Shown here: positions 1,502 to 26,110 of the stretch, one piece after another | Layout: every line of letters starts with the position of its first letter | Position numbering within the stretch: the first letter of the stretch is position 1 | Assembly: GCA_036172245.1 (NCBI GenBank) | Contig: JAYWIR010000068.1 | Span: 434,001 to 481,149 of the forward strand | DNA from: Raillietiella orientalis | Lineage: Eukaryota | DNA length: 47,149 nucleotides | Direction of reading: 5' to 3' | The notes under the pieces: model-generated | The model's input: only the letters and a program-made list of their open reading frames with translations | Database searches by the model: none | Told to the model about the DNA's origin: nothing | Made by a program: the position numbers and the translations under genes

Positions 1502-1514
1502 GTCTTCCCCTTTT

Positions 1515-4500: not shown

Positions 4501-5031
4501 CTGTTAGCGATCCGCAGGACGCTCTGGAGGAGTGACCTTCCGCCGGGCACCCAGGATGACCTCCTGATGTTTTATCACGGAGGAATCCAGAGTGGGTCCC
4601 GATTGCAGCACTTCACAGGAAGACGGGAAGACCGAGACTGCGCAGCATGTGGAGACGACGACACGAGACTTCACGTCTTGACGTGTCCCACACTGCTGCA
4701 TGACTGGTTGATCCTGAAAAGGATCATAGGACTTACCAACAAGTCCGTTATGGAGATCCTCGCCGGGATGTTTCATGGGGATGGTAATGTTCCCTGTTAC
4801 AATCCCATGGTGAGGACGACCATAGCCCTCTTCATCACCGCCATACTTGTGCGGTGGTGGAAAATGAGGAAAGCCAGGAGAGCCGCACCACCGATGGAGA
4901 TCCTACAAGGGCTCTGGAAGAGGGAAATCGGCATCAGGAACTGCGGGAAGATCCACGCCTGGACGTACCGATTCATCCTGAAGAGGATCCAGGACGACGC
5001 CCGGGACCATCCAGCTGGAATTCCCCCCTGA
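1515..5031 (+). pseudogene. Tx1 ORF2 (APE endonuclease + reverse transcriptase + C-terminal Cys/His finger), frameshifted
   Basis: SWNVNG, LQETH, NVYGP, GDLN, IDH, SDH (APE); WRPISILNSDAK, DMEKAFD, GVRQGDSLSP, AYADD (RT); CAAC...HVLTC. One A is missing at about 2471 relative to the sister copy; a second frame change occurs near 4410. Confidence 0.93.
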
Positions 5032-7264: not shown

Positions 7265-8860
7265 GGAAACCTAAACTATATGGCTCTAAGCTTTTTATTT
7301 AATCCCGTGTGAACGTATGTTATCTGCTGTTTGAAATGAACGAAAACAATGGTTGTGGATTACTATCTTCATGTACTGCTTCGGCTGTGTACGACTTGGG
7401 TGAATATTTTTGCACTGATGCGGAAACTTGCGGAATTTTTTACATTATTATGTTGAAGTGGCCTGTGTTTCAAGTGGCCTGTGTGCGTGTTTTCCAGGTG
7501 GTTGGTAGACGCTTGCTACGCACGTGGACTTTCATTTTCCTGTAGTATTCCGATTCCCTCGAGTCAGGTTAATGGTCATCTGTCGGGTTCTGGAGAATCA
7601 GCCCTATTCTTCAGCTCAAAGCCAGTTTTTCTCGATTATGATGAAGGCTGGCGCATGTGGGAAAAGGTCTCCACGTTCCCTCATCTGCATTCTGGTTTGA
7701 TCATGCCCTGGGTTACGTGGTGCATGTGGTTGTTCCTCGGCAGCCCCTAATGTATCGTGAGTGCTATATGTTGCACTTTCATGGGCATAGCTGCTGCATC
7801 CAGGGAGCCTGTAGGAATTGCTAATTGTTGCACATGGAAAGTTCTCGTCTATCTGTGCATCTCTATTGCTGTTCTCTGCACACCTCTTCCTACTTGTGCA
7901 GGCTTGCACTTTTCCTGGGTGATTTCCGTTTCCTCTCTCAGCTAGATTCGTGACCATCTTGTGGGTTCTCGGGAATGGGTTCTGTTCTTCAGCTCATAGA
8001 GTCTCTTTTCCATTCCGGTTTTTCCCACGTGACGCGAGTCCTGGGAAGTCTTTACGCCTGTTCGATGGTGGGTTCTTATTTTGGCCAGTATCTTGTGATG
8101 TGATCCTCTTCGTTGGTGTTTCGATGCAGAACTTTATTGAAGCTAATTTGCACGCTCCATAGTTTGCTGGTTTGCAGCACAGTTGGGTATTTTTGCAAAC
8201 TCCTTGAATGGATGTGGCAGTCATGTTCTTCGGCTTGGGAATTCTTACGGACTGCTGAGTTGATGCTGCCGCATATCGACTGCATCGTCCGGCGTGCGGG
8301 TTCGAACCAGTTTCCATCCCAGCCCACCGCTGCCATGAATAACCTTTTGATGATTATCTGGTTACGAAGGACTTCTGGGCGTAGGATTTCCAATTTCTCT
8401 TGGTTCCTGGATAGTTAGATGTCCGTAATCCTAATTTTTGATCTGCGACTGTCCCCTAGTGCGGTGCGCAGCATCGAGTATAGGCGTTTCCTCGCCCTGG
8501 TGGGGATGGCGAACGTATGCCGAACGGGGGCCCTCCGTCAAAAGAAATTTATCATCCTCGAAGGAGGCAAATGTCTAAGCGAATGATTCCAGGAGAGTTG
8601 ATGATTTCAGCTTGTCGAATTCGTCTATCAGAGAACGTTAGGTGTCGTGAGCCGGTGGCGATTTCAATCGCAATTTTGCGTATGGCCGATGCGAGCGTGG
8701 TAGTTTGCCGTCTAGTCATCTCAGTGGGCTCCACAAATTTGGTTGCAGGATACCAGTCTCCGTCGGGGATCATTGTGCCGCCTATATTTCTGGTGTGCAC
8801 CATAGAATCACGTTGAGTAAGGGGAAATAGGATCAGCATTAAAACGAAAACTGAAATTTC
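7265..8860 (-). mobile_element. Old, degenerate Tx1 ORF2 3' half plus 3' end
   Basis: Minus-strand translations LEILRPEVLRNQIIIKRLFMAAVGWDGNWFEPARR and IH*GLPRNNHMHHVTQGMIKPECR*GNVETFSH match LRILELKSIELQVQFRMLRLCAKLWCTPWCLPARL and LHWGLPCNARRHHCTRGRVDPTCIRCGE of younger copies in this window. AATAAA on minus at about 7294-7299. Confidence 0.7.
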
Positions 8861-9099
8861 AAGACCTCCACTTGTCTGTACTCGTAGGAGTTAAAGTGAG
8901 AGGCTTTATGGTTTCTGTCGGATGAGGAAACATGTGAAACCATGATTCTTCTAATTTGATGAGAGGAGGAGCAATAGGTGACAGTCAGTCTTAGTCCTAT
9001 ATTGGCCTAGTATACGCGATCGGGAGTTGTTCTACAATAAGCCTACATCTTTCAGACTGCACGATGCTTTCTCAAAATAGAACACAGCACCAAATCTCA

Positions 9100-9830
9100 T
9101 TACCACTGTTAGTTAGTTTTGGATGTTCGGTGTTGTACCCATGTTGATAGATGGTTGTAGCATCTTTCAACCTCAGAGCAGCTTTTGTATTGGATGTATT
9201 GATCATTATAGTTTTCATGCTGTTTACTGATTCAACTAGGAAGGCGAGCCCTTTATATAGTACTATATGAGATTGAGGATCACAACATCCTTCTGCAGTC
9301 CGTTCATCCCAGTTAGTGTAACCGTATTCACCATCAAATCCATAGTTGTCCTGCAGAGCTAATTGATATGCAGATGATGTGATTCTTTTCCCAGTCTTCG
9401 TCTATAAGGGCTAACTCATTTCTAATCTTAATTTGCTCACAATAACGCTTGAATAATGAATGTTCTCGTAAATGTATTCAGATCCTTGACAACTACCTTT
9501 GTCGCCTGTTATTTGCCAAGCTAATAAATGGTTGAAAACTTATGAGCTGTTGGGCGTAATCCCAGCTCTTAGTTGGCCTTTAGACGTTGTAAATTCTCCA
9601 TATTGATGAAGTTGATTGCGTGTTTCTCCGGACATATGAGTTCTATCGTTTACAGCAAACTGTTGTGCAACAATACTAACGTGAGAGCGCATGCCACAGT
9701 GGTAAACGATCATAGACTCCTCTAGCATGCAGGAGTATAAGTGTATATATCCAGTCCCTCTGCGTTGGAGAACCTGTACATTTAAAATATTGGTGACAAA
9801 CTCCTGCTCTTAGATACAAGTTTCAACCTG
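9100..9830 (-). pseudogene. rep: Heavily decayed CRESS Rep (unit 0)
   Basis: GTGYIHLYSCM (motif II-like), EHSLFKRYCEQIK, NGLQKDVVILNL (Walker B-like), VESVNSMKTIMI; lies immediately left of an ori-like remnant. Confidence 0.4.
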
Positions 9831-9861
9831 TGAAATTGATATTACAGTGATATTTGCGCGC

Positions 9862-9896
9862 GAGAAATTGCAACCATAGCCAATAATACTCGGGTA
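9862..9896 (+). other. Decayed CRESS origin remnant (unit 0)
   Basis: GAGAAATTGCAACC...CAATAATAC (9881-9889) aligns to CAGAAATTGCAATC...TAGTATTAC of ori1; 2 mismatches to CAGTATTAC; right arm of the stem lost. Confidence 0.4.
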
Positions 9897-10589
9897 AACA
9901 ACCGGACTGGGAAAACACCTAAACATGTTAACATAACTTGACGCAAACATGATGCAGCAATCTTATGTATCTACCTGATTGTACTGTTACGCAAGTGATG
10001 GATTGTGAGCCTATGTGCTCCGTGTGTTTTGGAATTCACTGTCACAACCCTCCATAGTTTACTGTTTGAGTGTCAACCAATACACAGTGTAATGCATTTT
10101 GCTCACTGCGATTTTATCTCCATTGTAGTCCGCATTTACTGATGATTTTGTCTGCTCAGTCCGTGGAACAAAATCAATCATCTAAACTATCATGAATAGT
10201 TGAAAAAGTGACAAGGAAGTACATCTTTAAAATGATAATGACCAACATAATCCTGCAGTGCCTTTCAAGATTGCATGTCCAGTCTATAGCCAAGCACATG
10301 TAACATTTTTCATTCGATTTTTTGGCGTATAAGCACTTCATGTTTCTGCCATAGTATAGGGTATTTATGAAATGAATGTTTGAAAATGTTAAAAATTACA
10401 GCTCTTAATGATTCAAATGATAATTTCAGCACTGAAGGGTGAAGTGTAGTTATTGTTTCAAAGGAAGCTCATGAAGAAGAAGCATTTAAATTATGCAATC
10501 AGTAACTGAAATTTCTGAATAAATATAAAATTGAGAATGTATTAGAAAGTCTAATTAAAGTGGTCAGGAGGTCAAGAGGGTTTTCGGGG

Positions 10590-11507
10590 ATGCCTGTTGT
10601 AACGCGTTATCGTTGTCGTGCTTATCAGCGAAGAATGCGGATGTTGTTTTATTTGGGGAGGCGACGTGCGGTCTCATATCGTCTCAGGGGAAATGTTCGG
10701 AATTATAATTATCGTCAAAAAGGCGTAATTCTATAAAGAGGAATACTTGGGCTGATGCTTTAATTGTTTTAAGTTCGAGAGTGGCTTTTGGTTGTCGTGA
10801 TTTCATTAAGCGTGCTGTTATTCCTCATACAATATATATGGATGATTTGCATCGTAATGAGGGAAATCAAATATCGTGTTTTGTGACCTGGAATTATTTT
10901 CTGAATGATGATAATAGAGAAATATTGAATTTGTGTGGTCTAAAGGATATGACTAATTGTTTTGAGTTCGTGTTGGTGTTAGATGGACTTTTGAACCTTT
11001 ATCTGGAACAATTACTGATGAGAATGAAGCACAGCTTGGCACATTTACTGTAGAAGGGAATTATGGTTATGTTAATTATGTTGTGGCTAATCCCAAAGAA
11101 CACGGTTGTAATACATTTGGAGAATTAACTTATTCAAATGTGCTTCATAATTTGACTTGGCATCAAACGAAGATATCATCTTTCTATTATAAATTCAAAG
11201 ACAGATGTTTGATGTTATGTAAAGGCTTATATACAGGAGTCGCCTATGACAGGCACAGGTGACTGTGTACTGTATACGAGGCCTCGTTGCCCGTGGTTGA
11301 GCACAGAAAAGGATACTCAGATGACTACAAAGATACTTGTTGGCAGTCCTGTTATTGCTAAACATGTTACTTTTAAGGTTCCTGCTGATTGGCCTTATGA
11401 GAAGATAATAGTGCCTGGTCATCAGAAGCTTGTGAAGAATTTTCCTGTTTCGAATCTACAAAAAATATTATTTTCAATTTAAAGGAGCTAGAGACAAGTT
11501 ATATTAA
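10590..11507 (+). pseudogene. cap: CRESS capsid protein, divergent and disrupted (cap0)
   Basis: Arg-rich N-terminus MPVVTRYRCRAYQRRMR; RCPWLST matches RCPWIDS and KYYFQFKG matches TYYIQFKH of cap1; several stops and frameshifts; convergent with a Rep C-terminus. Confidence 0.7.
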
Positions 11508-11509
11508 AT

Positions 11510-11995
11510 AAATTCTTTTATTTCGTTATTGTGGGTTACAATGAATTCTGTTTCTTGTTTTGAGTTGTCGTCAATGAAGTGGACAATTCATCTATCACTA
11601 CTCATGTTTTCGTACTTTGGGTCCATATTAGCCATGATGATCATGAGGACGCTTAAAAAATTTTGTGTACATTTAGTACAGCAGATGATACCATTTTTGG
11701 GCGATTCGATGAGTCCATAATTTATATGTCCCTCGACGTCCATTGTGAGGTCCATAATGATTTTCTCGCCGTTGTATATGTATGCAGCATCGCTGTTCTT
11801 GCAGTTATTTAAGTAAATGGCATCATATTGCATGTATGTATGTTTTGTCGTGGTTGTTTTTCCTGAATTGCCTTGGTAGTCGGCATAACAATGGAGGTCG
11901 CGTTCGTTTGGTTCATTTTGTATTATTCGTAGAAGGTTTAATTGCCATTTTTTTAATATTTTTCCATGCATGTCCCTTTGAATGCCGCCAAGGGC
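11510..11995 (-). pseudogene. rep: CRESS Rep, SF3 helicase half
   Basis: LKKWQ, GNSGKTT (Walker A), KIIMDLT (Walker B), NYGLIESPKNG, IIMAN (motif C), MSSDR (Arg finger). Confidence 0.88.
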
Positions 11996-11999
11996 ATGA

Positions 12000-12650
12000 C
12001 TGAATGTCGCGTTCTACCAGCTTGCCAGTTTGGTCAGTGATATCTCCCAAGACCTCTAAGGTACATCGCGATGCGCTCTGGGAGTGGCCGCTGCGTTGAA
12101 AAGAACTCCACGAGCTGTCTTTCGGCTTCGCTATATGCCGTGATGCGCGTGAACTGCGGCGACACGCGCCCAATGTTGACACATGACGTAATCCTGAAAC
12201 ATTGAGTAGCTGATTTGTCCCTTAAATTGGGGGTCTGCAACTGCCAGTTCTGCGTAGACAGCCTCGATCAAAGAGGCAATCCCATTGCAGTAGTTCTGAA
12301 TTCTAGAACTCCGCCATCCTGACTGTAACCTTGGTCTCCGTCAACTTGGAACTCATTCAGCCAAAGCGGATCGTTCCTCGTCTCAGAGGGGATGGTTGAC
12401 AAGTTCTTGGGGGTCGGAGTTGGCCTGTCTGGCTCGGGGAGAAAACTGTTGTGAAACATCAGAGCCACTTCGGCTCGGCCTGGGACGGAACCTCCTTCGA
12501 GGACCGGATCCTGAGGCTGGAGCTGATGCTGAGACTGGAGACGGAACGGCATCATCAGCTGGAAAGTTGCGAATATCTTTTAGGAAAGACCATTTTGCTT
12601 ATCTAAGCATCAACCATAAAGTTTTACAGCACAAGGTGTAAAAAGGGTAT
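12000..12650 (-). mobile_element. Probable L1/Tx1 ORF2 post-RT fragment separating two Rep halves
   Basis: GC-richer than its flanks; PFYTLCCKTLW and DPLWLNEF...GL resemble post-RT motifs of L1/Tx1 ORF2; no TSD seen. Confidence 0.45.
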
Positions 12651-12976
12651 GTAGCTGGTTCGTTAGTTTCTTGGATAGCTCCATATGTCCATGCGTGTTT
12701 GTCTTCTTTTGTGCAGTACCTTAAGTTGCTCCGTGGTGAACCGCGTGCTTTCTCGAGGTGGCACTTCTGGAAAGGTTTGCGCTTCAAGCCAGGCAAAGTG
12801 CGTGGTTCCTTTAGTTGCATGTATCCTTGGAGGTGTGGTGTGCCTGTGCTTGAGGTTTCTTTGCCGATGCATGCGAAGAAGCGGTTGCATCTGCAACATT
12901 CTTTGATATCCTTTAGGTCCTCTTCTGTAAAGTTGCAAAGGGTGATGCACCAGTTAAAAAATAATGCGTAAGGCAT
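12650..12976 (-). pseudogene. rep: CRESS Rep, HUH endonuclease half (rep1)
   Basis: MPYALFFNWCITLCN (motif I), TPHLQGY (motif II), YCTKE (motif III). Confidence 0.93.
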
Positions 12977-13063
12977 TGTGCGTGGTGTTGGTAATTCACT
13001 GTAAGTAAGACTTGGCTTTCGTTGTGTGTTAAAGGTATATATACTGCGTAACTGCGCAGAAAT

Positions 13064-13096
13064 TGCAATCTGGTAAATAGTATTACCCAGATTGCA
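13064..13096 (+). other. CRESS rolling-circle origin stem-loop ori1
   Basis: Stem TGCAATCTGG/CCAGATTGCA with TAGTATTAC at 13078-13086. Confidence 0.95.
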
Positions 13097-13156
13097 TTTC
13101 GCTGACAACGAAAATCCTTGGGAAATTCCTATATGCTGCAATTGATATTTTTAGTA

Positions 13157-13286
13157 GCTGGTTTATGTCCGCAATCGTGGAAGACTTTGGAATGCGGAAC
13201 AGGATGCTGTTGTCCACGTGGGAAGTGCGTGGCGTAACCCGACCTCGTGGAAGGCTGATAAAGTCGGGTGGGCGTGTCCCACCAGC
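13157..13286 (+). promoter_or_regulatory. Conserved multi-hairpin intergenic element, unit 1
   Basis: Closing stem GCTGGT/ACCAGC enclosing TCCGCA/TGCGGA, CCACG/CGTGG and ACCCGAC/GTCGGGT hairpins; repeated in units 2 and 3. Confidence 0.7.
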
Positions 13287-13344
13287 CAGACTGAAAAAGG
13301 GAGGGGGGATGACTTAGGTCGCCAGTACGCTGTCAAGCAGCGGA

Positions 13345-14252
13345 ATGGGATCACCTCGCGCAGCTCGCTCTCGGAAGAGGAAGGGAACAGGATCGTTTTT
13401 CTTGGCGAAGCGTCGTCGTCTGTCTCGTCGAAGAGGGGGATATAGTACGTTCCAGCGTCGTCGGCGTTGGAATGTGCGTCGTAGGCGTGTGAAGCTGTAT
13501 CGTTCACCTCGATATAAGTTGTCTCGTACGACGCGTGTGGTATCTCGGGATTTGATGTCGGGAGCTGTTCATTATAGTTCATTGGGACCGCTGACGGTGA
13601 CCACGTGAATTGTTCTTGGATGTTTACATATGACCAAACTGTCATGTCTGTTGTAGATCGTTTGCGAATAAAAAATTTGGATGTTTTCGCGAAGTTCTAT
13701 CGATATGTTAGGGTGAAGGGATGTGCAATGAAGATCGAGCCTATGTCCCTAGGTTTAACGATAGGAAATATGGGTGAAGAGTTTGGTATGAAGGTTTCGT
13801 ATAGGAATATGCTTCTGTATCAAGCTGCAAACCAAGGCGAATATTTTGGAAATAGTAAAGTAGAGGATATGATATCTGGCCATGGAGAAACTTCTGGTTG
13901 TTTCGCTCGATACTTTGGTGTTCGGGGTATCCGTGTGTATTCGCGAGTGTATTTGAGGAAGTCGGTTCCAAACTACGGAGGGCAATTGTTGCGTTATGTA
14001 CGTTGTCCTTGGATTGACAGTTCGGAAGGAAGAGATTTGGATGCTGAAACGAAAAGTTATGTGCATATGAACCGCGTACATGTGATGAAGCATATGTGCG
14101 GTGTGGACATCCCAGATGAGTCGAAGGAGGCTTGCCAGTCGGGTGTTTGTCCGAAGAACAGGCGTCTGAAAAATGGTTATCCAAAATATAGAATAACTAG
14201 AACGTACTATATCCAATTCAAGCATTTAAAAGATACTGGCTTGTATCAATAA
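13345..14252 (+). pseudogene. cap: CRESS capsid protein (cap1), one frameshift near 13585
   Basis: Arg-rich N-terminus; FYRYVRVKGCAMKIEP typical of circo-like jelly-roll capsids; YYIQFK C-terminus; AATAAA overlaps the stop (14248-14253). Confidence 0.9.
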
Positions 14253-15357
14253 AGAGACAAGTATATTGTTGATGTTGTATTTCATCAAAAAAGGGAGAGG
14301 GGGGTGACAAAGAACTCAATGTGGAATCAGGCGAGTCTCGGGTTTGCACTGCGCTAGGGCTTGAAGTGCAAGCCCAAGGGAGAATGGTTCCTGAATCATC
14401 CATCATCCAGGGAACTAGAGCTGTGTTGTCCGACTTGGAAATATCTCGAACTATCCATCTGTCACTGCTCATCTTATCGTAATTAGGTTCCCAATTGGAG
14501 AATACGAGAATATGGGGTGGCTGGAAATATTTAATGGGTCTTTGATTCTTCGAGTCGAAGATTATTCCGTTTTTAAGTGTCTCGATGGATCCGTATTGTA
14601 CCAACTCTTGGTTGTCTCTTGTGAGGTCAACCACAATGATGCGCTCACCGTTGTATATGTGAGCAGGGTCTGCCTTTTTGCAAGAGTGCATATAAAGGGC
14701 TCCTCTTTTTAGGTAGAGGAATTTCGCCATCGTGGTTTTCCCAATGCCTCCTATGGGATCAATGTATTTTGCGTTGATCTGGTTGGTGACGTATAATGTT
14801 GAGTATGTCCATTTGCCATGATTTCAATTGTAGGTTAGCAAGGGGGTTGGGATGTGCTCTGCTTGTTAGGCGGAAGCTTTCTTTTACGAAGTTAATGTTT
14901 TTTGAATAAAATTTGGTGTGATTCTTGAGGATGAAGTGTTCGTCTGCTCCGTCCTCGATGAGTTGAAGTATCTATGGATATAGGGTTATTTGTGAATTGT
15001 AAAAATGATTTGTGGTTTACCAGGTCTTGGTAGTCGGTTGGTTCGTTGGCGTCGTGGATTCTGCCGGATGTCCAGGCACGTTTGTCTTCTTTTGTGCAGT
15101 ACCGTAAGTTGCTCTGTGGACTGCCTTTTGCTTTTTCTAAATGGCTTTTTTGAAATGGTTTGCGTTTTAATCCTGGCATGGTGCGTGGTTCTTTGAGTTG
15201 AAAGTAGCCCTGGAGATGTGGTGTCCCTGTTTTAGCGTTGTCCTTGCCGATGCAGGCGAAGAGACAGTTGCAGGGCACCAGTCTTTTATTTCTTTGAGAT
15301 CTTCTTAGGTGAAGTTCATAAGGTGAAGCACCAGTTGAAGAATAACGCGTATGGCAT
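14218..15357 (-). pseudogene. rep: CRESS Rep, full length but disrupted (rep2), with putative intron 14972-15020
   Basis: WCFTL, PHLQGY, YCTKE, GGIGKTT, IIVVDLTR, YGSIETLKNG, ILVFSN, SSDRW; stop or frameshifts near 15316, 15280 and 14760. Confidence 0.93.
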
Positions 15358-15432
15358 GGTGAAATTCCCGGTAAGTGAGACTTGGTTTTGGTCGTCCGTG
15401 CGGTGGTATTTATACTGCGTAACTGAGCAGAA

Positions 15433-15467
15433 ATGCAATCTGGTCAAGAGTATTACCCAGATTGCAT
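15433..15467 (+). other. CRESS origin stem-loop ori2
   Basis: Stem ATGCAATCTGG/CCAGATTGCAT with GAGTATTAC at 15448-15456. Confidence 0.93.
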
Positions 15468-15524
15468 GTAGCTGACACGGCAAAACCTTGGAAAATTCCG
15501 TATGTAAAAGTAGATAGTGTGGTT

Positions 15525-15652
15525 GCTGGTCTTTGTCCGCAATCGTGGAAGGCTGAGGAATGCGGAACAAGCTGTGCTTGTCCACGTGATGCTCGTGGGA
15601 AAGATCCGACGTCGTGGAAGGCTGATAAGGTCGGATGGGCGTGCCCACCAGC
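15525..15652 (+). promoter_or_regulatory. Conserved multi-hairpin intergenic element, unit 2
   Basis: GCTGGT/ACCAGC; TCCGCA/TGCGGA; ACAAGC/GCTTGT; CCACG/CGTGG; ATCCGAC/GTCGGAT. Confidence 0.7.
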
Positions 15653-15710
15653 TACTCTTAAAAAGGGAGGGGGGTTAGGTTAGGTCGCCAGTACGCTGTC
15701 AATCAGCGGA

Positions 15711-16460
15711 ATGGCGTCACCTCGCGCTGTTCGTTCTCGAAAACGAAAGCGTGTAGTATCTTCTGCATTCGGAAAGCGACGTCGTTTAGTCCGTGGTCGT
15801 GCTGGTTATAGCACGTCGGCGTCGTTGGAATGTACGTCGTCGTAGATTTCGTCGTTTGCGTGTGTCTTGTGCTAGGTTGTGGAAGACAACGCGTGTTGTA
15901 GTTAGAGATTTTTTGCAAGGGGCTTCTCATTATTCATCGTTACGAACTGCGGACGGAGACGCAGTGAATTGTTCTTGGATGTATACGTATTTGGAGGACG
16001 CTTCAGTTGTGAAAGATTTATTGAAGCTTTGTAATTTAGAAGAGTATGGTCGTTATTATAGATATATGCGTGTCAAAGGTGTATCGGTAAAGATAGAGCC
16101 TATGTCGCTTGGATTGACTATAGGTAACATGGCGGAAGAATTTGGTATGAAGATGTCTTATCGGAATATGCTGTTGTATCAAACTCCAAACCAAGGGGAA
16201 ACTTTCGGTGCATTGTTTGGTATGCCTTATAGTCGTGTGGAGGATGTAATAGGAGGTCATCGGGAAACGTCTGGTTGTTTTGATCGGTATTTTGGTGTTG
16301 GTGGTAGAAGATTTTATTCGAAGGCTTTTATTGCGGAAACTGAATATTTGGAAGGTGGTCGTTTGACTAAGTATAAGCGTTTCCCATGGACTGATGTTTG
16401 GCAGGGTAGTTCTTTGGATTCAGAGACTTCCATTCGTGCTTGGTTTCATAATTTTCAAAC
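15711..16460 (+). pseudogene. cap: CRESS capsid protein (cap2), frameshifted and 3'-truncated
   Basis: MASPRAVRSRKRK..., YYRYMRVKGVSVKIEPMSLGLTIGNM, RFPWTD; ends at Tx1 APE sequence. Confidence 0.9.
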
Positions 16461-16464
16461 ACCA

Positions 16465-16745
16465 CCTGAACGCGTGGGTGAAGAAATGCACCTAGAAGAT
16501 CGAGAGGATCGGAGGGGGACGGTTGTATTGGCAATGCGGAGTTCGCATCACCTGTGGCATCGCGTTTTTTGTGAAGCTAGCAGTCGACGGCGTCGTCAAG
16601 GGCGTACGCTTCGACAAGAACAATTGGGTTGGCCAGCTGATCTTTAGGTGGTTCTATTCGATCGACCTGATCGTCACAAACGTGTATGCACCGGGCGGCA
16701 AGAATGGGTACCATGAGCGTTCGCGACCTCAGGTTGGTGGGGGAG
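16465..16745 (+). mobile_element. Tx1 family B APE fragment
   Basis: TCGIAFFVK...VRFD...SIDLIVTNVYAP, matching 41441-41944 and 45964-46356. Confidence 0.8.
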
Positions 16746-16749
16746 TCCA

Positions 16750-17105
16750 CGTTTTTTGACGGTTTTACTCGCCGCGGTCAGGCTATTATAGCCCTCGAAA
16801 ATCGTGGGTGTTGGCCACAACCCGTGCACAATTCCGAACTTTCAAGTTCATCACTCATCGCAGATCGCGCCATGCCGTTCGTATTGCCGGTTATGTGGAC
16901 CACTACCTACCGGTCCATCGACACCGGATATATCTTGCAGCCGTCCACAATCATCGGGGTGTTGATCAGGCGTTCTTCAAAGGCTATGTCCGTACAGACC
17001 ACGACGCGCTGACCGCGCTGAGGGCAGAGATCTCTAACGTTTATTTCCTGAAGGGCCTGAGCAAATGCGCATGCCGTACGGCCATCGAACAGGGGCCCAC
17101 CTTAT
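16750..17105 (-). mobile_element. Tx1 family B ORF1 fragment
   Basis: Homologous to the minus-strand ORF1 at 25570-26064 (ARAF...VHITGN...ELEKFGIVH). Confidence 0.65.
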
Positions 17106-17124
17106 GTACAAGCCGCACCGCCGA

Positions 17125-17315
17125 TTTCCCAGGAATAATACCTGGGCTCTTCTGTCGCCGTCGGATCCGCGTGGCCTCTTGGAACGTCAATGGGGACAGC
17201 TACTGACAGGATAAAGCCGACACCCTGCGAGTTCGACCTGGCCCTGCTGCATGAGATCCACGTGATAACCGCGGCAGACGTCCAGGAGATCCAGACGTTC
17301 TCGGGGTGTCGGCTG
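17125..17315 (+). mobile_element. Tx1 family B ORF2 N-terminal fragment
   Basis: FPGIIPGLFCRRRIRVASWNVNG...FDLALLHEIHV. Confidence 0.8.
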
Positions 17316-17801
17316 TTTTTCACCCGGGTGCGCCGGGATGTTTATTAATAAACTATCCAGGAACAGAGTTCCGTGTGTAATGACAAAGAAAAAACGAAGC
17401 GAGGGATCCTCGACACAGGTCGGTATACCGAAAGTCCGCAACAGGATGCAGGGGACCACAAATACAGAAATAAAAAATAAAAATAAAAATATGAGGAGGG
17501 TAAGAGACAGGGGTCTTTGGTGCGGCCGTTCCTTTTCTTCAGAAGCGGCTATGGATGCTGGCAATCTCGCTCCTAACGCGCTCTGGTAGGTGGGTCCACT
17601 CGGAAGCCGAAGACATGTTTACGCTGGCTATTGACGAAGGATGGCCACCATCTCAAACTCTCGATGGGCCTTGTCGATGGCGCGGGTGCAACAGACCGTT
17701 GCGATTACAGCTCCTAAAAACATTCCGCCTGGCATGAAGAAGCGGCGCATCAAGTCTCTTGCGGTGTCCCCCTAGTGCTTGGGAGCTGAGACCGCTGGCG
17801 C

Positions 17802-17826
17802 CGTGGTATACGTTTTTATTCTCGAG
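17802..17826 (+). repeat. 25-nt direct repeat of cap3 sequence at the left viral junction
   Basis: CGTGGTATACGTTTTTATTCTCGAG, identical to 19522-19546. Confidence 0.92.
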
Positions 17827-18564
17827 ATCTACTACAATGATGCGTTCTCCGTTGTAAATGTGTGCGGCGTCTGCTTTCTTGCATGAATGCATGTATATAG
17901 CCTTTTTTTTGAGATATAAAAACTTGGCGAAGGTGGTTTTGCCGTTTCCTCCGACTGGATCATAATACCAGTAGATTTTGCGGTTGTCTGGTTCAGATCG
18001 TATTAGTTTAAGTATGTCCATTTGCCAGCTGCGCAATTGTAAGTTTGCCATCGGGTTTGGGTGGTTTCTGCTTCGTGTTAACCTGAAGCATTCTTTAACG
18101 AAGTTGGTGTTTTTGCTGTAAAATTTAGTATGGCTTTGTAGGATATCTAGTTCTGATGCTCCGTTTTGGATTAGTTGTAGTATCTTGGGTAGAATAAAGT
18201 CATTAAGTAATTTAATTTTGCTTACCATGTCTTGGTAGTCGTTTGTTTCTTTTTGTTCTTGTATCATGCCAAATGTCCACGCTTGGTGGTCGTCTTTGGT
18301 GCAGTACCGTAAGTTGCTACGTGGACTGCCTTTTGCCTTTTCCAAGTGTGCCTTTTGGAAAGGTGTTCTTTTTAAACTGGGTAGTGTTCTGGGATCCTTG
18401 AGTTGTATGTAGCCTTGGAGATGCAGCGTCCCTGTGCTTGCGTTTTCTTTCCCGATGACTGCGAAGGTGCAATTTCTCCTGCACCAGTCCTTTATTTCTT
18501 GAAGTTCTTCATCCAAGTAATTGCATAGTGTGAAGCACCAGTATAGGAAGTGGCCGTACGGCAT
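17824..18564 (-). pseudogene. rep: CRESS Rep (rep3), open but truncated after Walker B; putative intron 18184-18225
   Basis: WCFTLCN, LHLQGY, YCTKD, LRSWQ, WYYDPVGGNGKTT, IIVVDL. Confidence 0.95.
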
Positions 18565-18644
18565 TGTTGTGTAGTGAAATTCTGTCGAGGTGAGACTGGT
18601 TTATGCCTCATGTTGTGATGGTTTATATACTGGCAAACTGCGTA

Positions 18645-18684
18645 GTATTTGCAATCCGGTCAGTATTACCCAGGTTGCAAATGC
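18645..18684 (+). other. CRESS origin stem-loop ori3
   Basis: Imperfect stem GTATTTGCAATCCGG/CCAGGTTGCAAATGC with CAGTATTAC at 18661-18669. TATA-like boxes on minus just left of all three oris (about 13036, 15407, 18622). Confidence 0.92.
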
Positions 18685-18740
18685 CTTATTCGGCAAAACG
18701 TTGGAAATTGTGCGTATGTTGCAAGTTTTTTATAAGTGGT

Positions 18741-18876
18741 GTCTGGTTTGTGTCCGCAATCGTGGAAGACTTAGGAATGCGGAACAAGATGTTCTTGTCC
18801 ACGTGTGCATGTCGTGGCATGATCCGACCTCGTGGAAGGCTCAGTTAGTCGGATGGTGCGCACGCACCTACCAGAC
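18741..18876 (+). promoter_or_regulatory. Conserved multi-hairpin intergenic element, unit 3
   Basis: GTCTGGT/ACCAGAC; TCCGCA/TGCGGA; ACAAGA/TCTTGT; CCACG/CGTGG; ATCCGAC/GTCGGAT. Confidence 0.7.
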
Positions 18877-18931
18877 TCGGAGTATACGGAGGAGGGGGCT
18901 CTATGACGTCAGTTGCAGTTGAGTCATCGGC

Positions 18932-19546
18932 ATGGCAGCACGTCGTGCGCGTGGTTCTCGTAAGGCATATCGTGTAAAGTCTAGTACTGTACCTATTAAG
19001 CGTCGTCGAATTGCTCGTACAGGTTATTCGACTTTTAAGAAGAGGCGTCCTGTATATAATCGCAGAAGGCGTAGTAGGTTGGTAGTCCTCGTTGGCGTGT
19101 TGTTAAGGCTACGCGTGTGGTTTTGAGGGATGTTGTGTTGAATGCTGAGCATTATTCGTCGTTGCGTGTAGCAGACGGGGATCATGTGAATTGTTCTTGG
19201 ATGTTTACGTTTTTTGAAAATGCTAGCAGCCTGAAAGAGATGTTGAAGGAATTGAATTTAGAAGAATTTGGTCGTTATTATCGTTATGTCCGTGTGAAAG
19301 GTGTAGCTTTCAAAATAGAGCCATTGTCTTTGGGTTTGACTATAGGAAATATGTCTGAGGAGTTTGGAATGAAGGTGTCATATAGGAATATGTTGTTGTA
19401 TCAGACATTTAATCAGAGTGAATGGTTTCGAAGTCTTGTTGTTCAACCGTATAATGCTGTTGAGAATGTTATAAATGGTCATAATGAAACGAGTGGATGT
19501 TTCACTCGGTATTTTGGTGTACGTGGTATACGTTTTTATTCTCGAG
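18932..19546 (+). pseudogene. cap: CRESS capsid protein (cap3), frameshifted and 3'-truncated
   Basis: MAARRARGSRK..., YYRYVRVKGVAFKIEPLSLGLTIGNM, ends at GIRFYSR. Confidence 0.9.
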
Positions 19547-22500
19547 CTCCAGTCCTTGGAGTCACAGTCCTTGGAGGACACCGCAGTCAAGGAGCAGGTG
19601 CGGGAGCGTTTTAACTTTCCCGCACCGCTTACAGTTCGGGGAGACAAATCCCCCGGAAACACGGTTCGTCCACAGGTTGGAGTGAAAATCCCAATGCACC
19701 AGCAGGATGACGTCCTGTTTCCAAGTTAAAGGGAACACAGAAGTGTTCAAACCAGAGGGAGGGATCACGTTCTTCGGGGGCACACTCAAATGTTCACTCC
19801 ACCGAAGGACTCCTTTCGGGATGATGCGAGGCGTGGCGGCGTCTGTCTGCTCGCAATTCCTCCAGCCGCCTATGGGTCGTTTTGTTCCTGCAATGGTGCA
19901 GGCGACCTCCCATCTCGCCGGCAGGCAGCTGTCCTCTCTTGCCCTGAGTGCTGGAAGCGCGTCGGCGAGGGGCGTGACGGCCAGGCGAGCCCACTTCTGG
20001 CTGTTCCAGACCTCATGTGCTGTGCAGTACGGGGAGAGGTTGGCGCAGCGCAGTTCCAAGAGCGAAACATCCTGCTACTTAGCCCACGCATGCAAACGTT
20101 CAGGCCGCCAGGCTTCAAAGTTGGTTGCGCGGCTAGAAATCCAGTCGTGGGTTGCCAGGAACCGCTAGAGAGGTTTCAAAGGGAAACCACAGCTTTTCGT
20201 GACGCGCTCCGTATGAGGCAGAAGCGACAGAACTCCATCGCTGCCACTAAAGCGCCGCAGGAGCAGGCGCTCGGGAGCACACCACGGAGTGGCGCTCAGG
20301 AACGTTCGAAGATGCATCTGCAGATCGATTCTCTCTAGCGTCCCATTCCGAAGGGAAGCCACCAAGTCTTTGAGGCGGATCCTGGACCCCGCAGGTCCCC
20401 ACAGAGCGTTCCTCAACAGGCTTTGCGCCTGGATTTTGATTCAGGCAGTCAAATGCCTTGCAGATATTGACCGCGAACGCCACGGCACCCGGCGCTTCCT
20501 CAGGTCGAATGCAGCAACGCCTAGCCGCGGGAGCCACAGATGCGCTTACCTGGCTGTCGTGCGCCGCGCACCTCTGCAGCTGGAGCAACGAGCTCGCGAA
20601 GAACATGTTCCTCTCCATGGCCGTCCGGGAACAGAGTAGGTCTGCTCCGGACTTACCACGGATCCTGCGATCCTGCCTAGTCGCCCGATCCAGAGCTTGG
20701 AGAACAACTTGACGTCCGAATTTACCAAGGTGATCGGACGCCAGTTGTTTCATTGGTGCATGTCTCGGCCTTTGCGGAGGCGACGCATCCTTGCTGAACG
20801 GAACGAGTCCGGGAGATTGTCCGTCTCTCGCATAAGCGCAGAAAACCTCAGCACCAGGGGGATGAGTTCCGCAGCGAAGCACTGGTAGAACTCCGCAGGC
20901 AGACCATCCTCACCTGGAGCCTTACGCTTCTTGAGGCACGCTCTGGCGGAAGACACTTCTTCCGCCGTAAAGGGCAAGTCTAGAGTGGCGCGTTGCACCT
21001 CGTCCACCGCAGGGGCATCCGCCCGCAGAAGCAGCTCCGAGAGACTGCGTTCCGTCGGCTCCCTAGCATACAACATGGAGTAGTAGCGCTTTAGGAGGCG
21101 GCGAACTTCGCCCGCGCCCGAGCACTCCAGGCCCTGGTCGTCGAGCAGACGAGCTGCTCCTGACTGCCAGACCTGGCTCTCGGCCTTGGCCTTGTACTCC
21201 GCAAGGTACCGGACGTCCGGGCATCGGGAGAATTGGCGGGCTTACAGAAACGCTCTGCTGTTGGCAACGCCTTCACGGAAGCCATAGGGAAGCACGCACA
21301 AAGGGAACCGGCTGCAGAACTCGGGGACGGATCTTTTCAGAACGTCCTTGTCCACGAGCTCCCAAACGAGCAAGCTCCGGAGATGCAGGCGGAGCTGTTC
21401 CGCAGCCACCGGGTTTCAGAGCCAGTGGGCCGGCATCCGCCAGACGTGCGTTGGAGGGCCTTTGCCAGGCGGGGGTAGCTCAAACTCCAGGCTGTGGTAG
21501 GCAGACAGCTCGGACGGCATGGGACCTCTTCGACCCACCCGACAATGCAGGTGATCGTCGAGGAACAAATGGTCCGGCAAAGCACGCATCGCTGGATCGT
21601 CGGCCAGCAAATTCGAGGCGTGCACGGACTCGCACACCTCGTTCACCAACCGCTTCTCCCGGCGACGGTGTGTCTCTTCCGATAGCGCGTGGACGCGTAA
21701 GTCTTAACGAGGTGAGCCACGTCGTGGTTGCAGTTGCTGAGCCAGCGGTCGCGCAGTCTCTGGAAATACTCGAGTTTCTCGGTGTTTCGCGCGAAATCAC
21801 ACGGCGTGTACATGTTCGTGACGACAAGTTCGATCGATTCGGACCAGTTGAGCCCACACGACCTTCCTCGTCGAAACAAACGTTCCGCACCGCCTCCGCC
21901 ACTCTGCCTCGGACGAGAAACGCGACTCCGCACGTGTGTGCGCAGTCCTGGCGCCAGTGTAGCGTCCCCCCCGCGCGCTCTTCCAGATCCGATGCCTGGC
22001 GTTCGGAGATGCTACCTATCTCCTTCAGCAGCAGCAGATCGAACGCGCGCAAAGCGTTGGTTACCTTCCGCCTTTTGTCAGCGTAGCGCAGCCCGTTGAT
22101 ATTCCAACAGGCCATGCTGACGCGACGAACGAAAGCGGGTCCATGCATTATTGCTTCGGACATGTCGGTGAGCTCCTCGCCCCGTCTCCTCGAGAAATCA
22201 ACTGGCAGCACAGCGGATTGGGAAGCGGAATCGCTCCCTTTCACCGCCACATCGCACCCAGCTGAGTCCTGGGAGCCTAGATTCATCGCCTCGGGCTGGT
22301 ACCGCTTCCGGCAACAGGCTTGTGCTTGCGCAGTTTAGGGTGTCGCGCTTCCGGGTTACCTCGGGGTGCGCGCACGATATGTTTTCAAATCGGACTCCAC
22401 CTCGGAGTTCGTATGTTGAGAACGAGACTGGTGTTTAGCGTGTCTCTTTGTTTTGGCAGGTGGAGGCTTGCCCCGCCCGCGCGGGAGTCGCCGCAGTCGC

Positions 22501-22989
22501 TAACGCAGCTTCTGGAGATTTGGCTTCTGCAGCCGCTCTCTCGCGCGAAGCGACAGAGAGAGAAGACGCAGCCTTAGTTCGTACCTGGATACGCACCTTC
22601 GGCGTGTTGCGTTTCTGTCTCCCACCTACTTCTAGGATGGGGAATATTGAAGGGTAACCTTCCCCTTTGTGGGCGTCCTGGCGATGCGTGTCCAGCCCGC
22701 GTCGGGTACACCCTCTTGGGAGGTCGACGCCTCCCTCAATTGTTTGGCCGGAGATGCCGGCTCGGATTTCGCGCTCGCAACGGGAGACGGCTCCGTACCC
22801 GTTACGCGCTGCACCTGCTCCGCCAGTGCAGGCGAAACGGCGGTCATTGCCGCCGTCGCGCAATGCTTTATTGCAGCCTTCGCTGCCCGTTCCTTCGCTG
22901 TGGACGGCGTGCTCGCCGGGGCCTTAGGTGAAACGGCCGTTGAGAGTCTGTTCCGGGCCTGCCAGCGCGCGGTTTCCCGGGTGTTTCTC

Positions 22990-23127
22990 GTGGAGGCTAC
23001 TTTATCTTAAGTATTGAGAAGTCTGAATTTGGAAGAATTCGCGAAGTATTATGGATATGTGCGAATGAAGGGTTGTGCGACGAAGATAGAGCCGATGTCG
23101 TCAGGATTGACAATAGGTAACGTGGGA
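22990..23127 (+). pseudogene. cap: CRESS capsid fragment (cap4)
   Basis: LRSLNLEEFAKYYGYVRMKGCATKIEPMSSGLTIGNVG. Confidence 0.88.
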
Positions 23128-23128
23128 G

Positions 23129-24660
23129 TTGCCACCCAGGTACGCCCGAGGCGTTTATTAATAAAAAACTCTACAATCGCGGTACCAGGCCCCGCTGACG
23201 GCCTTATGCACGGGACCTACCGGGACGCCGGGACGCAGCCCGGCGTGGCACTCCCCGGCAGCGAAAGGGGATGGGGAAAAACAAAAGTAAAAATAAAAAC
23301 GCAAACAAACAAAAGAGGTTGGAGGGCAGGGAAGGGATCACTGTTCGCTGAGAGGAGGGCCCATCCGTTGAAGGAAGCCCTCGAGGTCCATCCGTATGTT
23401 CCCCAGTTGGGGCCATCCAGCAGCTCTCCGCAAGAAGCGTTGGGCATATGGGATGACATCCCTCGCGTGTTGACCCACTCCTTGTTGGTGTCGCTCCATG
23501 CCGCCACGATGCCTCGGACGCAGCACAAGGCTGCAAGGGCTGCGGCTGGCTGCAGGGCGTCCTTCACGAAGAGGGGCCGAAGAACGTCTCTGGGGGTGCT
23601 GCCCGTAGGGAGCCCTAGGGTCGCCCCGAACCGTTCCCAGAGGGGTCGGATGGCAGCACAATCCACAATAAGGTGGGGAAGCGACTCCCGCTCCCCGCAC
23701 CTGGCACACGCAGGATCCACAGCTCCCCTCGTCCAGTGGAAGCGGCGCGCGTTGCAGGGTAGACCCCAGTGCAACAAAAGCAACGCCGACTCTTGCCACT
23801 TAAGGGGCAGGATCCTGGATTCCTTTAATACCGGGGGCCACTTCAGCACATCCGTAGGGATGGCGAGCAGCTCGCCCCATCTTCTTAGTCCTCGCGGCTG
23901 GACGCTCGGGATCGTGGCGTCCGCCAGTTGACCCATGGTCGAGCCACTCATTCTCTTCTCCCGTCCCTGGATACAGCAGGAGACTCGCCACCTTGGCGTC
24001 CGACTGCTGTGAAGCGCCCTCCTCAGAAAAGGCAGCGCCGTAGCCAGGCAGGTTGTCTCTGCCCACGTGCTTCTAGCTGGATTCTCCAGGAGATTCCTCA
24101 GAGTGCAGTGGGCGTGGAGGCCGCATCGGAGAGGATTCCGCATTACGTGGCTTCTGTGGTTCACCACAGTCCACGTTCCGATGCTCTCCTCCAGCCAGGC
24201 GGAGGAGTTGGCGGGGCAGAAAACCATCCAGCTGTTCTCCATGGCCAACGATGCCATGCGCCCGAGCTGTAGGCCGCATCTTCTGATCTTCCGGCCGGGG
24301 CACAGAAGAAAAGACGCGAGTCCTTCGCATCGGGACACACGCCTGGCGAGCAGGTGGGCCGGAATGCACCAAGGGGTGCTTCATAACTTCGCTGCGATGG
24401 CGAGGGTTCACCATCGCAGCTGAATCTCTACTCGCTCCATCGTCAAGAGGCCGAGACAGCCATCCCGACGTGGAGCACACAAGTCCTTCAACGGGACTCG
24501 GAGCCTCCCGTTGCCCCAAAGGGCTACGCGAAGAAGGTCCTTTGTCCTCTTTTTACATTCTTTGGGAGCGGGGCAAACAAAAAGCAAGGGGCAAAGGATG
24601 AAGGCCGCAAAAGCGTTGCAAACCGCGGCTCTTTCCGGCAAGTGAAACTTACCTTCCAGA
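23129..24660 (-). mobile_element. Tx1 family B ORF2 3' part plus 3' end
   Basis: LLLHWGLPCNARRFHW...CARCGERESLPHLIVDC; AATAAA and hairpin at 23133-23159. Confidence 0.88.
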
Positions 24661-24669
24661 AAGCTGGCT

Positions 24670-24940
24670 GTTGATGATTTATTGCGAAAGTAAGAGTTGG
24701 ATGATTTCGCGAAGTACTATAGATACGTGTGTGTAAAAGGATGTGCGACGAAGTTAGAGCCAATGTCTTTAGGCTTGATGATAGGAAATATGGGTGTAGA
24801 GTTTGGCATGAAGGTGTCGTATAGGGATATGGTGCTGTAACAGGCTGCGCACCAGGGAGACTACTTTGGAAGTTTGGAAGGTCATCCATACAGCTAAGTA
24901 GAGGATACTCTAGCTAGCCATGCTGAAAGTTGATGTTTTT
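24670..24940 (+). pseudogene. cap: CRESS capsid fragment (cap5) with stops
   Basis: DDFAKYYRYVCVKGCATKLEPMSLGLMIGNMGVEFGMKVSYRDMVL*QAAHQGDYFG. Confidence 0.88.
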
Positions 24941-25280
24941 GGAGTAGAACGTAGTATGATTGTGTAGGATGGAGAGTTCATCGGCGCCATCTTTGATAAT
25001 TTGGAGTATTTAGTGGGAGAAAGTTTTTGATCTTGTTGTAAATGAATTTTGCCTTACTTGGTGTTGGTATGAAGCTGGTTCGTTGTTTTCTTGTATGGCT
25101 CCGTATGTCCATGCATTCTTGTCCTTGGTGCAGTACCGTAGGTTGCTACATGGTGACCCTCTGGCTTTTTCAAGGTGGCATTACTGGAACAGCTTGCGCT
25201 TCTAGCCGGGTAAGGCGCGTGGTTCTTTAAGTTGTAGATAGCCTTGCAAGTGAGGCGTTCCGGTGCCGCTTATGCTCCTT
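24932..25280 (-). pseudogene. rep: CRESS Rep fragment (rep5)
   Basis: GTPHLQGYLQLKEPR, HLEKARGSPCSNLRYCTKD, ILQIIKDGADELSILHNHTTFYSKN. Confidence 0.88.
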
Positions 25281-25289
25281 TTTAGGGTT

Positions 25290-26110
25290 ACCGTCCGGGT
25301 TTTTCTGTTTTTTTTCCGCGGTTGGAGCCTTTTTTACTTTTCTGGCCGCTATAAGTTGCCAGCCCTCTTCCTCTCCCAGCACTGTGGAAGGTTGATCCTC
25401 GGACTTTTCTTTGGGAGATTGAGGCGCTGGCAGCTTCTGTCGGCCAGTGTCCGTATTAGGTATCGCGACCTTCGAAGTGCGTTTCCCCTGCGCTTGATTC
25501 GCAGCAGAGGGAACCGGGGTGGGGCGTTTCGGACACGCGCCGAACGTGGTCCCGTTCCCCGCACAGGTGTCACCGTATATTGGGACACTTCTTGCGTAGG
25601 TGTCCTACGGAATCACAGTAACCGCAATATCGGGGCTTTCCCACATACCAAAGGTCCACGTTCTCTTGTGCAACCTCCAGTTTGTGGGGAAGCCCACAAT
25701 TTTCTCTTACGGTCAAACGCACTGCAGCCTTTTCCCCGAAAAGGCTGTTATAGCCATTAAAAATCGTTGGTTTGGGCCACTGCGCGTGCACCTCGCCGAA
25801 CTTTTTAAGTTCGTTCCCAACCGCTGACCGTGGCATGCGGTTTGTGATGCCGGTCAAGTGGACCCCCACGGAGCGCTCTATTGATACCGGCAGGATCTTG
25901 CGGCCGTCAACGTTAAGCGGGGCATGGATAAGGCGTTGAGCCAAAGTGATGTCTTTGCTCATCACCTCGACCCGCTGCCCGCAGCTGAGGACGGAGAGGC
26001 CCTCAAGATCCTTCTCCAGGATGTTTGCATCTTGCACCGCCTTACTAAATGCGCGTGCCGTCAAACAACTTTCCTACCTGATATACAAGCAATGGCTTGT
26101 ACCCGGCGGC
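25290..26110 (-). mobile_element. Tx1 family B ORF1 fragment
   Basis: ARAFSKA...VDLWYVGKPRYCGYCDSVGHLRKKCP; homologous to 44338-45171. Confidence 0.85.

Follow-up and report, generated by a model that had tools for sequence, protein, structure and literature searches.

Endogenous elements of circular Rep-encoding single-stranded DNA (CRESS) viruses, whole genomes and tandem arrays included, are already known, so that the presence of such an element in a eukaryotic chromosome is in itself ordinary. As far as the cited accounts go, whole CRESS genomes and a 10-kb tandem element have been found in Entamoeba and Giardia (Kinsella et al. 2020, PMC7493932), elements holding both the Rep and the Cap gene of krikoviruses in saurians and beetles (PMC10193959), nearly sixty CRESS Rep copies in the salmon louse and Varroa (Liu et al. 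2011, PMC3198968) and, in plants, the 2.6-kb repeat EGV1 of yam with its stem-loop TAATATTAC and the GRD repeats of Nicotiana (Filloux et al. 2015, PMC5014472). Here we describe a locus in a stretch of 47,149 nucleotides (nt) from Raillietiella orientalis (GenBank assembly GCA_036172245.1, contig JAYWIR010000068.1, positions 434,001 to 481,149 of the forward strand), hereafter the window, whose own numbering is used throughout. Between positions 12636 and 16510, the window holds a head-to-tail array with two viral origins of replication (ori1 and ori2), which is identified by its sequence as an endogenous element derived from a CRESS-DNA virus (Cressdnaviricota). In the stretch between these origins, a coat gene and a replication gene that come from two different viruses are most likely joined. 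The explanation that we favour, tentatively and at a little less than an even chance, is that the array is a germline-integrated piece of ~3.9 kb (1.64 unit lengths) of a two-virus concatemer formed in a mixed infection.

The described systems resemble this locus to different degrees. The elements of Entamoeba and Giardia and those of krikoviruses also carry Rep and capsid genes that were integrated together, sometimes in tandem, and that have decayed by stops and frameshifts. According to the reports, however, they derive from one virus each, whereas in the window the in-register repeats are different viruses and two origins are intact. EGV1 and GRD, as presented by their authors, are likewise head-to-tail repeats of circular single-stranded DNA (ssDNA) viruses keeping the origin stem-loop and partial or whole rep genes, but they differ in their plant host and virus family, and they are near-copies of one element rather than a mixture of two lineages (named alpha and beta below). 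In the published account, the salmon louse and Varroa copies show that arthropod germlines were invaded repeatedly by circular ssDNA viruses that were identical or closely alike, but these copies are scattered, with unrelated flanks, and not joined in register. The PIWI-interacting RNA (piRNA) clusters of Aedes aegypti, loci of endogenous viral elements (EVEs) and transposable elements that are described by Whitfield et al. (10.1101/127498), also gather several virus families in one direction among retrotransposons. They consist mostly of RNA-virus fragments tied to long terminal repeat elements, whereas here DNA-virus units with genes on both strands lie among long interspersed nuclear elements (LINEs).

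A further parallel is offered by replicating viruses. Mixed infections with ssDNA viruses are described as giving rise to multi-origin concatemers by strand switching or recombination-dependent replication (PMC3187698), and genomes released from such concatemers are reported to have two breakpoints, of which one marks the switch and the other the origin (Martin et al. 2011, PMC3187698). These concatemers, as well as partial-dimer infectious clones, share with the array a greater-than-unit length, two direct origins and one template switch. In that account they are transient intermediates or laboratory constructs, whereas the array is chromosomal and has broken genes, and its release would be hypothetical. 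What is unusual about the locus is that distinct viruses stand head to tail in one register, that two origins are perfect, and that a second greater-than-unit-length genome, a defective one, lies nearby. Taken together, these three features suggest that the DNA entering the germline consists of rolling-circle or recombination-dependent concatemers, a route that is assumed for these viruses and has seldom been seen. No report of an in-register array of different CRESS viruses was found in literature searches that were not aimed at that exact phrase and did not cover subscription journals.

The sequence AGTATTAC occurs three times in the window (at 13079, 15449 and 18662), always on the + strand; shuffled sequences hold 0.52 copies on average, and none of 100 shuffles reaches three. 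All three copies belong to stem-loops with NAGTATTAC that lie between the 5' ends of a rep and a cap gene, which is the configuration of a CRESS origin. At every origin, a Rep gene starts leftward on the - strand and a gene with an Arg-rich N-terminus starts rightward on the + strand, so that three units can be named: unit 1 (rep1N-ori1-cap1), unit 2 (rep2-ori2-cap2) and unit 3 (rep3-ori3-cap3). Ori1 is built from the arms TGCAATCTGG (13064-13073) and CCAGATTGCA (13087-13096) around a 13-nt loop that ends in TAGTATTAC, while ori3 (18650-18679) bears the nonamer CAGTATTAC. Folded as ssDNA, ori1, ori2 and ori3 reach -13.1, -11.6 and -9.3 kcal/mol, with z scores of -4.1, -3.6 and -2.7. Ori1 and ori2 are in direct orientation, and the sequences of their stems and nick sites are intact.

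A sequence-only reading of this DNA had proposed that the 2370 nt from nonamer to nonamer are a complete viral genome holding cap1 and rep2 with overlapping 3' ends, bracketed by parts of another virus. The layout was borne out: the nonamers are spaced by 2370 nt (15449-13079), and the open reading frame (ORF) of cap1 ends at 14252 while that of rep2 reaches 14218, which makes an overlap of 35 nt. The description of both genes as broken proved right as well, since cap1 has one frameshift and rep2 has to be read in five frame pieces (four frameshifts) with two in-frame stops. The flanking rep1N and cap2 are indeed diverged homologues beside like origin stems, as units 1 and 2 are 71.5% identical in 1301 nt and have the same 10-nt arms. 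Two direct, intact origins around a full gene set are, as far as the cited review of such systems describes it, a geometry known for replicational release (PMC3187698), in agreement with what had been suggested. That reading of the interval did not mention the third origin and its unit (17802-19549), two fragments (22996-23163 and 24640-25290) and the gamma unit (10560-12013).

The Rep genes score 57.8 (rep3), 56.0 (rep1N) and 46.0 bits (rep2, E 6.5e-12) against PF02407, whose cut-off is 26, and the Reps match circovirus and nanovirus Rep nuclease domains in the Protein Data Bank (PDB) with E values from 2e-12 to 2e-6. Their translations contain CFTLCNY, HLQGY, YCTK, GGNGKTT and IIVVDL, plus ILVFSN in rep2, which we take to be rolling-circle motifs I-III and the Walker motifs of a superfamily-3 helicase; the helicase match in Pfam stays under the threshold (18.2 vs 21.5 bits). 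The capsid genes bear a weak resemblance to those of circoviruses. Their N-termini are rich in Arg, and PF02443 is matched with only 23.3 bits against a cut-off of 36.2 (E 8.8e-5). The look-alikes of the capsid found with a protein language model are Cressdnaviricota clusters (score 0.93-0.94) in which Circo_capsid is annotated on 14-31% of the members. A search of the capsid profile against PDB sequences gave no match at E up to 10, and the predicted capsid fold is of very low confidence (mean pLDDT 31.5). Introns or programmed frameshifting were considered as the cause of the single frameshift present in each capsid gene and were rejected, because the three shifts differ in place and direction.

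Rep homology in rep1N stops near 12636, and at the other end of the array LINE endonuclease sequence begins near 16502, which ends cap2. No gene for a working cognate Rep is present in the window: rep2 carries the lesions given above, and rep1N and rep3 are truncated. The lesions are unevenly distributed, as rep2, the sole full-length Rep, bears six of the nine disabling lesions of the three units, while no lesion interrupts the truncated Reps (117 and 245 codons). For this excess, a binomial estimate made post hoc gives p ~0.01-0.03. Selection against a working Rep between two origins could account for it, and so could chance.

The three units are mutually 66-72% identical at the nt level, and the way in which they differ is that of separately evolving viruses. 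In all 13 usable codon-aligned pairs of copies, identity is lower at third positions (0.37-0.66) than at first and second positions (0.57-0.90). The proportion of synonymous differences (pS) amounts to 0.49-0.91, mostly saturated, and the bootstrap 95% upper bound of the ratio of the nonsynonymous proportion to it (pN/pS) does not exceed 0.56 in any of these pairs; one further pair (rep2N-rep4) was excluded from this set. Between rep1N and rep2, identity is 75% at the nt and 77% at the amino acid (aa) level, with a pN/pS of 0.13-0.35, and frames of 117-285 codons persist open in spite of 25-35% nt divergence. Since the differences are mainly synonymous and third positions are saturated, the copies are distinct viruses and not a decayed simple concatemer. 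This pattern indicates that the copies belong to different viruses of one group, whose divergence took place during viral replication while their proteins were under constraint, and few disabling lesions are present. The sequence-only reading, which took the flanks to be another virus rather than decayed copies of the same one, had named differences without synonymous bias as evidence to the contrary, and all 13 comparisons turned out to be biased toward synonymous change.

A comparison of unit 1 with unit 2 alone cannot locate the boundary between two viruses, so unit 3 and fragment 4 (24640-25290) were used as outside references, over the stretches common to all four (258 columns of Rep and 276 of capsid). 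The grouping of 1 with 4 and of 2 with 3 is supported by 18 parsimony-informative sites in Rep, vs 7 for each of the two alternatives, and by 28 vs 7 and 2 in the capsid. The signal is spread through the sub-windows of both genes, and both of the other quartets fail the approximately unbiased (AU) test (p=0.0076 for Rep and p=0.0003 for the capsid). Thus, rep1N and cap1 group with fragment 4 (lineage alpha), and rep2 and cap2 group with unit 3 (lineage beta). As each origin is flanked by one lineage on both sides, the ori-to-ori unit would be a cap(alpha)+rep(beta) composite; this argument assumes that unit 3 and fragment 4 each represent one viral genotype.

The alpha-to-beta switch falls between 13947, where the capsid test region ends, and ~14895 (Rep residue ~155), that is, ~0.55-1.8 kb away from either nonamer. 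The proposal that one virus had inserted at the origin of a resident relative was to be contradicted, by its own terms, by breakpoints far from the origins, and this is where the switch was found. Alpha spans ori1 and beta spans ori2, so that the proposal fails, provided that each reference piece is a single genotype. Units 1 and 2 are about as identical to the left of the nick site as to its right (0.82 and 0.79), and none of the ends of pieces seen in the window, be they virus-host or virus-virus, coincides with a nonamer. There is thus no footprint of Rep nick-joining, and insertion looks like end joining of linear DNA.

The 3'-3' region, where cap1 and rep2 meet, lies within this interval. 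Past SSDRW, which is conserved close to the C-terminus of Rep, rep2 can be read on for 79 codons without a stop, through the end of cap1 and its stop; the other two frames hold five and seven stops, and 87 of 5000 shuffles of these 237 nt were free of stops. Directly after the cap1 stop stands the 16-nt motif AGAGACAAGTATATTG (14253-14268), which recurs after the stop of the gamma capsid gene (11489-11505) and which is probably a conserved 3' signal. The form common to both places is AGAGACAAGT(T)ATATT. No host, LINE or filler sequence was detectable at the join by comparison within the window, and the open rep2 tail and the 16-nt motif make the join look native viral rather than filler. The change from alpha to beta was probably homologous and would lie either in residues 110-213 of cap1 or past residue 155 of rep2; no second alpha piece extends over these parts.

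According to the explanation that we favour, the alpha and beta viruses would have replicated in the same nucleus of the germline lineage, where a linear product of greater than unit length, presumably one molecule, would have formed with one template switch from alpha to beta. Replication of the recombination-dependent or rolling-circle kind could have produced the switch, or else homologous repair by the host that linked viral DNAs; such repair is described as also being able to assemble foreign DNA into head-to-tail concatemers before integration (PMC7145541, as far as that account extends). The linear molecule would then have entered the chromosome by end joining at arbitrary points, in a putative single insertion event. 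It would have ended at Rep residue ~117 (left) and capsid residue ~250 (right), unless its ends were trimmed to these points later by LINE activity, and the inserted array would have decayed thereafter. From ori1 across the 3'-3' region to ori2, the array keeps its register without a break, with the alpha part (rep1N-ori1-cap1) on the left and the beta part (rep2-ori2-cap2) on the right, head to tail as in a partial dimer. In addition, greater-than-unit-length molecules did integrate at this locus, as seen in unit 3, which repeats a capsid piece at both of its ends.

A compatible Rep acting on both intact origins would release exactly the alpha/beta recombinant that the replication model predicts. 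It is conceivable, if unlikely, that the array is a fossil replication intermediate in this sense, a two-virus concatemer caught by the germline prior to release, out of which an exogenous relative could in principle lift cap(alpha)+rep(beta). The released product would be this composite, with both genes broken. If this were true, the array would document, physically and directly, a co-infection as well as a template switch between species of animal CRESS viruses, and chromosomal viral fossils could feed sequence back into circulating viruses. Quite apart from this unlikely case, the locus shows that a chromosomal "ori-to-ori complete genome" need not be one virus, which matters for inferring extinct genomes from viral fossils.

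The main rival to the two-virus concatemer is that alpha and beta entered at different times at a virus-accumulating, piRNA-cluster-like locus and became joined when a break in the resident was repaired via short homology with an incoming relative, or fell into register by chance. We regard this as possible, if rather unlikely. The locus speaks for it, with at least five separate, co-oriented CRESS entries (unit 3 being clearly an independent insertion), a glycoprotein remnant at 9075-9809 and LINEs on both sides, and so does the precedent of Aedes, where loci are described as gathering several virus families one-way among transposable elements (10.1101/127498). Lesion loads differ too, with one in ~1.25 kb of alpha vs seven in ~1.9 kb of beta, a difference that is not significant (Poisson p ~0.1). 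However, an in-register, co-oriented join by chance is estimated at ~0.05 (with a tolerance of ~110 nt), an identity of ~70% nt is low for homologous repair, and the join shows no recognisable filler or host DNA. Decidedly less probable is the entry of a complete 2370-nt cap1+rep2 virus into the origin of a resident rep1+cap2 relative, by Rep nick-joining or recombination. It would explain the full gene set, a size near that of the contigs of distant relatives (2.0-2.3 kb), the intact origins with identical stems, the 3' overlap of cap1 and rep2 and the rep2 tail that is open past the cap1 stop, and origins are recombination hot spots of ssDNA viruses according to the cited source (PMC3187698). 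Nevertheless, rep1N and cap1 both go with fragment 4, and rep2 and cap2 both go with unit 3, which would require unit 3 and fragment 4 both to be reciprocal recombinants; the even identity across the nick and the lack of ends at a nonamer in the window also stand against it. An assembly artefact, a contig put together from related viral copies that lie in different places, is very improbable: the region is repeat-rich, but copies that are only 66-72% identical are too unlike to confuse an assembler, and the LINE junctions are collinear with other LINE copies. We leave scarcely any probability to an ancient one-virus concatemer or a tandem duplication by the host, followed by divergence of the repeats within the chromosome. 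It shares with the array the head-to-tail register, and one-genome arrays are known from Giardia (10 kb, PMC7493932) and yam (EGV1, 2.6 kb, PMC5014472), within what these reports describe; yet synonymous sites are saturated while the proteins were kept (rep1N vs rep2, above), which excludes it, and long frames are still open at such divergence.

Several points weigh against the two-virus concatemer itself. The lineage argument rests on short stretches (the 258 and 276 columns) and presupposes that each reference piece is a single genotype. With rampant recombination among such viruses, the concordance between the Rep and capsid trees would count for only ~3:1, as two trees would agree by chance one time in three. 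Similarity among the units also shifts: units 1 and 2 are closest (0.81-0.89) over the intergenic region and capsid start, and units 2 and 3 at capsid columns 950-1100, which suggests mosaic histories and weakens the argument from parsimony. The open rep2 tail over the cap1 stop fits cap1 and rep2 as native neighbours, and no exogenous relative above 49% aa identity was found that would show the native pairing of cap and rep and the native 3' region. The left neighbour of the array, a 612-nt spacer followed by a much more divergent Rep half, is ill-suited to a clean concatemer. Finally, single integration is a supposition, and two adjacent events would look alike.

Table 1. Virus-derived features of the window (positions in the window; +/- give the strand)
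Feature	Position	Strand	Description
Monjiviricetes-type glycoprotein remnant	9075-9809, perhaps down to ~7600	-	PF24664 in two ORFs, E 4e-13 and 7e-13
gamma unit	10560-12013		capsid-like gene facing a Rep helicase half; far more divergent
spacer	12014-12625		52% GC, between gamma Rep half and rep1N
rep1N	12626-12976	-	Rep residues 1 to ~117, HUH endonuclease domain, open frame, lineage alpha; PF02407 E 5e-15
intergenic region 1	12977-13344		between rep and cap starts; ori1 and two small conserved hairpins
ori1	13064-13096	+	10-bp perfect stem, 13-nt loop, nonamer TAGTATTAC at 13078-13086
cap1	13345-14252	+	complete capsid gene, lineage alpha (residues 23-109 tested); one frameshift within 13578-13608
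3'-3' region	14218-14457		cap1 stop, 16-nt motif, G-rich motif, hairpin 14340-14378, 79-codon open rep2 tail
rep2	14218-15357	-	sole full-length Rep gene of the window; lineage beta over residues 31 to ~155; 4 frameshifts, 2 in-frame stops
intergenic region 2	15358-15710		ori2 and the same twin hairpin elements
ori2	15433-15467	+	same 10-nt arms and one extra pair; loop ends in GAGTATTAC (15448-15456)
cap2	15711 to ~16510	+	lineage beta; one frameshift near 15815-15832; cut at ~residue 250 by LINE
unit 3	17802-19549		truncated rep3, ori3, cap3 up to residue 158; inside LINE
lone capsid fragment	22996-23163	+	~50 residues
fragment 4	24640-25290		capsid residues 23-109 (+) abutting Rep residues 155 down to 42 (-), lineage alpha, 3 stops per part

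Unit 3, which served as the beta reference, is a genome with a deletion that brings capsid residue 158 next to Rep residue ~258, and its rep3 is an open frame of 245 aa. A capsid piece of 25-28 nt is repeated 1720 nt apart at the ends of the unit: 17802-17829 is identical to 19522-19549 at 27 of 28 positions and abuts the truncated rep3. Unit 3 is recognisable from this arrangement as a slightly longer-than-unit copy of a 1.72-kb defective circle. It forms a single insert in a LINE, and the two parts of this LINE, at 17117-17766 and 19578-20299, match another copy at 30659-32189 collinearly; the junctions between unit 3 and the LINE are placed only to ~20-30 nt, as the paralogous LINE is too diverged. 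Fragment 4, the alpha reference, also has mid-capsid fused to mid-Rep like a defective genome, and it looks older because of the three stops in each of its parts.

To the left of the array, the gamma unit consists of a capsid-like gene (10560-11482, +), with three frame changes, that faces the helicase half of a Rep (11501-12013, -). This Rep half shows 40-47% aa identity to rep2 and rep3. The similarity of the gamma capsid is weak (hhalign E 0.039 and 0.1), and its two pieces align to consecutive columns. The spacer of 612 nt that follows has 52% GC beside a Rep half of 37% GC and shares a reading frame with the gamma Rep half and rep1N. It has no likeness to the rest of the window by blastn or tblastx and no Pfam match at E up to 0.1. 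Its identification as a degenerate middle part of a Rep was tried and rejected, since 47, 168 and 415 of 1000 shuffles scored equally well, which is not significant.

The relatives of these viruses are distant. An exhaustive search of 1.84 billion representatives with Rep gave best identities of 37-47%, and a word search gave four matches at 26-49%, the match at 49% covering only a third of Rep. In the corresponding word search with the capsid, none of 299 candidates was homologous. One scan of viral contigs found none of 15 stretches to be close and another yielded three loci at 40-42%; a metagenome scan returned 19 loci at 26-43% identity. An 18-nt origin pattern in one viral contig (L001) was discarded as a chance match, as it comes without Rep or capsid similarity. 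The closest named Rep, with 34% identity, belongs to Dragonfly larvae associated circular virus-10 (unclassified). This virus shares a PF02407-type Rep, a genome of ~2.2-2.3 kb and an association with aquatic arthropods, but differs in the low Rep identity and in that no capsid similarity to it was detected. Genomes of Circoviridae measure ~1.7-2.1 kb. With a unit of 2370 nt, a capsid match below the cut-off of PF02443 and a Rep distant from anything named, the viruses of the array are not assignable to that family.

The window as a whole is LINE-rich eukaryotic DNA, with ORFs for reverse transcriptase and endonuclease at 1350-4504, 35713-38616 and 41360-44262. GC content falls across ~7600-25300, the stretch that is packed with virus-derived pieces. 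LINE ORFs flank these pieces on both sides, which places them in host chromosomal DNA, and all six CRESS pieces (alpha and beta counted apart) are co-oriented. The locus is a multi-virus EVE cluster in which these six pieces are accompanied by a glycoprotein remnant of mononegavirus type and surrounded by LINE nests. Several virus families and transposable elements are packed together with the viral pieces running one way, as in a virus trap of the piRNA-cluster type. The glycoprotein remnant places a negative-strand RNA virus directly beside the DNA-virus array, and its matches to PF24664 (Monjiviricetes viral fusion glycoprotein) cover profile positions 188-284 and 56-136 of 653.

Two minor sequence elements recur around the capsid genes. 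The G-rich motif AAAAAGGGAG(A)GGGGG is found at 13294-13313, ~35 nt before the cap1 start, and at 14288-14308, ~35 nt past the cap1 stop; the two copies match at 19 of 21 positions with an E of 0.17 within the window, which makes them a lead only. The motif is also present upstream of cap2 in unit 2 and is missing from unit 3. Each intergenic region also contains twin small hairpins, ~70 nt apart, with TCGTGGAAGRCT in the loop (13168-13198 and 13239-13267; 15537-15577 and 15606-15646; 18754-18784 and 18824-18864). Motif and stems are invariant across the three units, and the hairpins could be Rep-binding repeats or capsid promoter elements.

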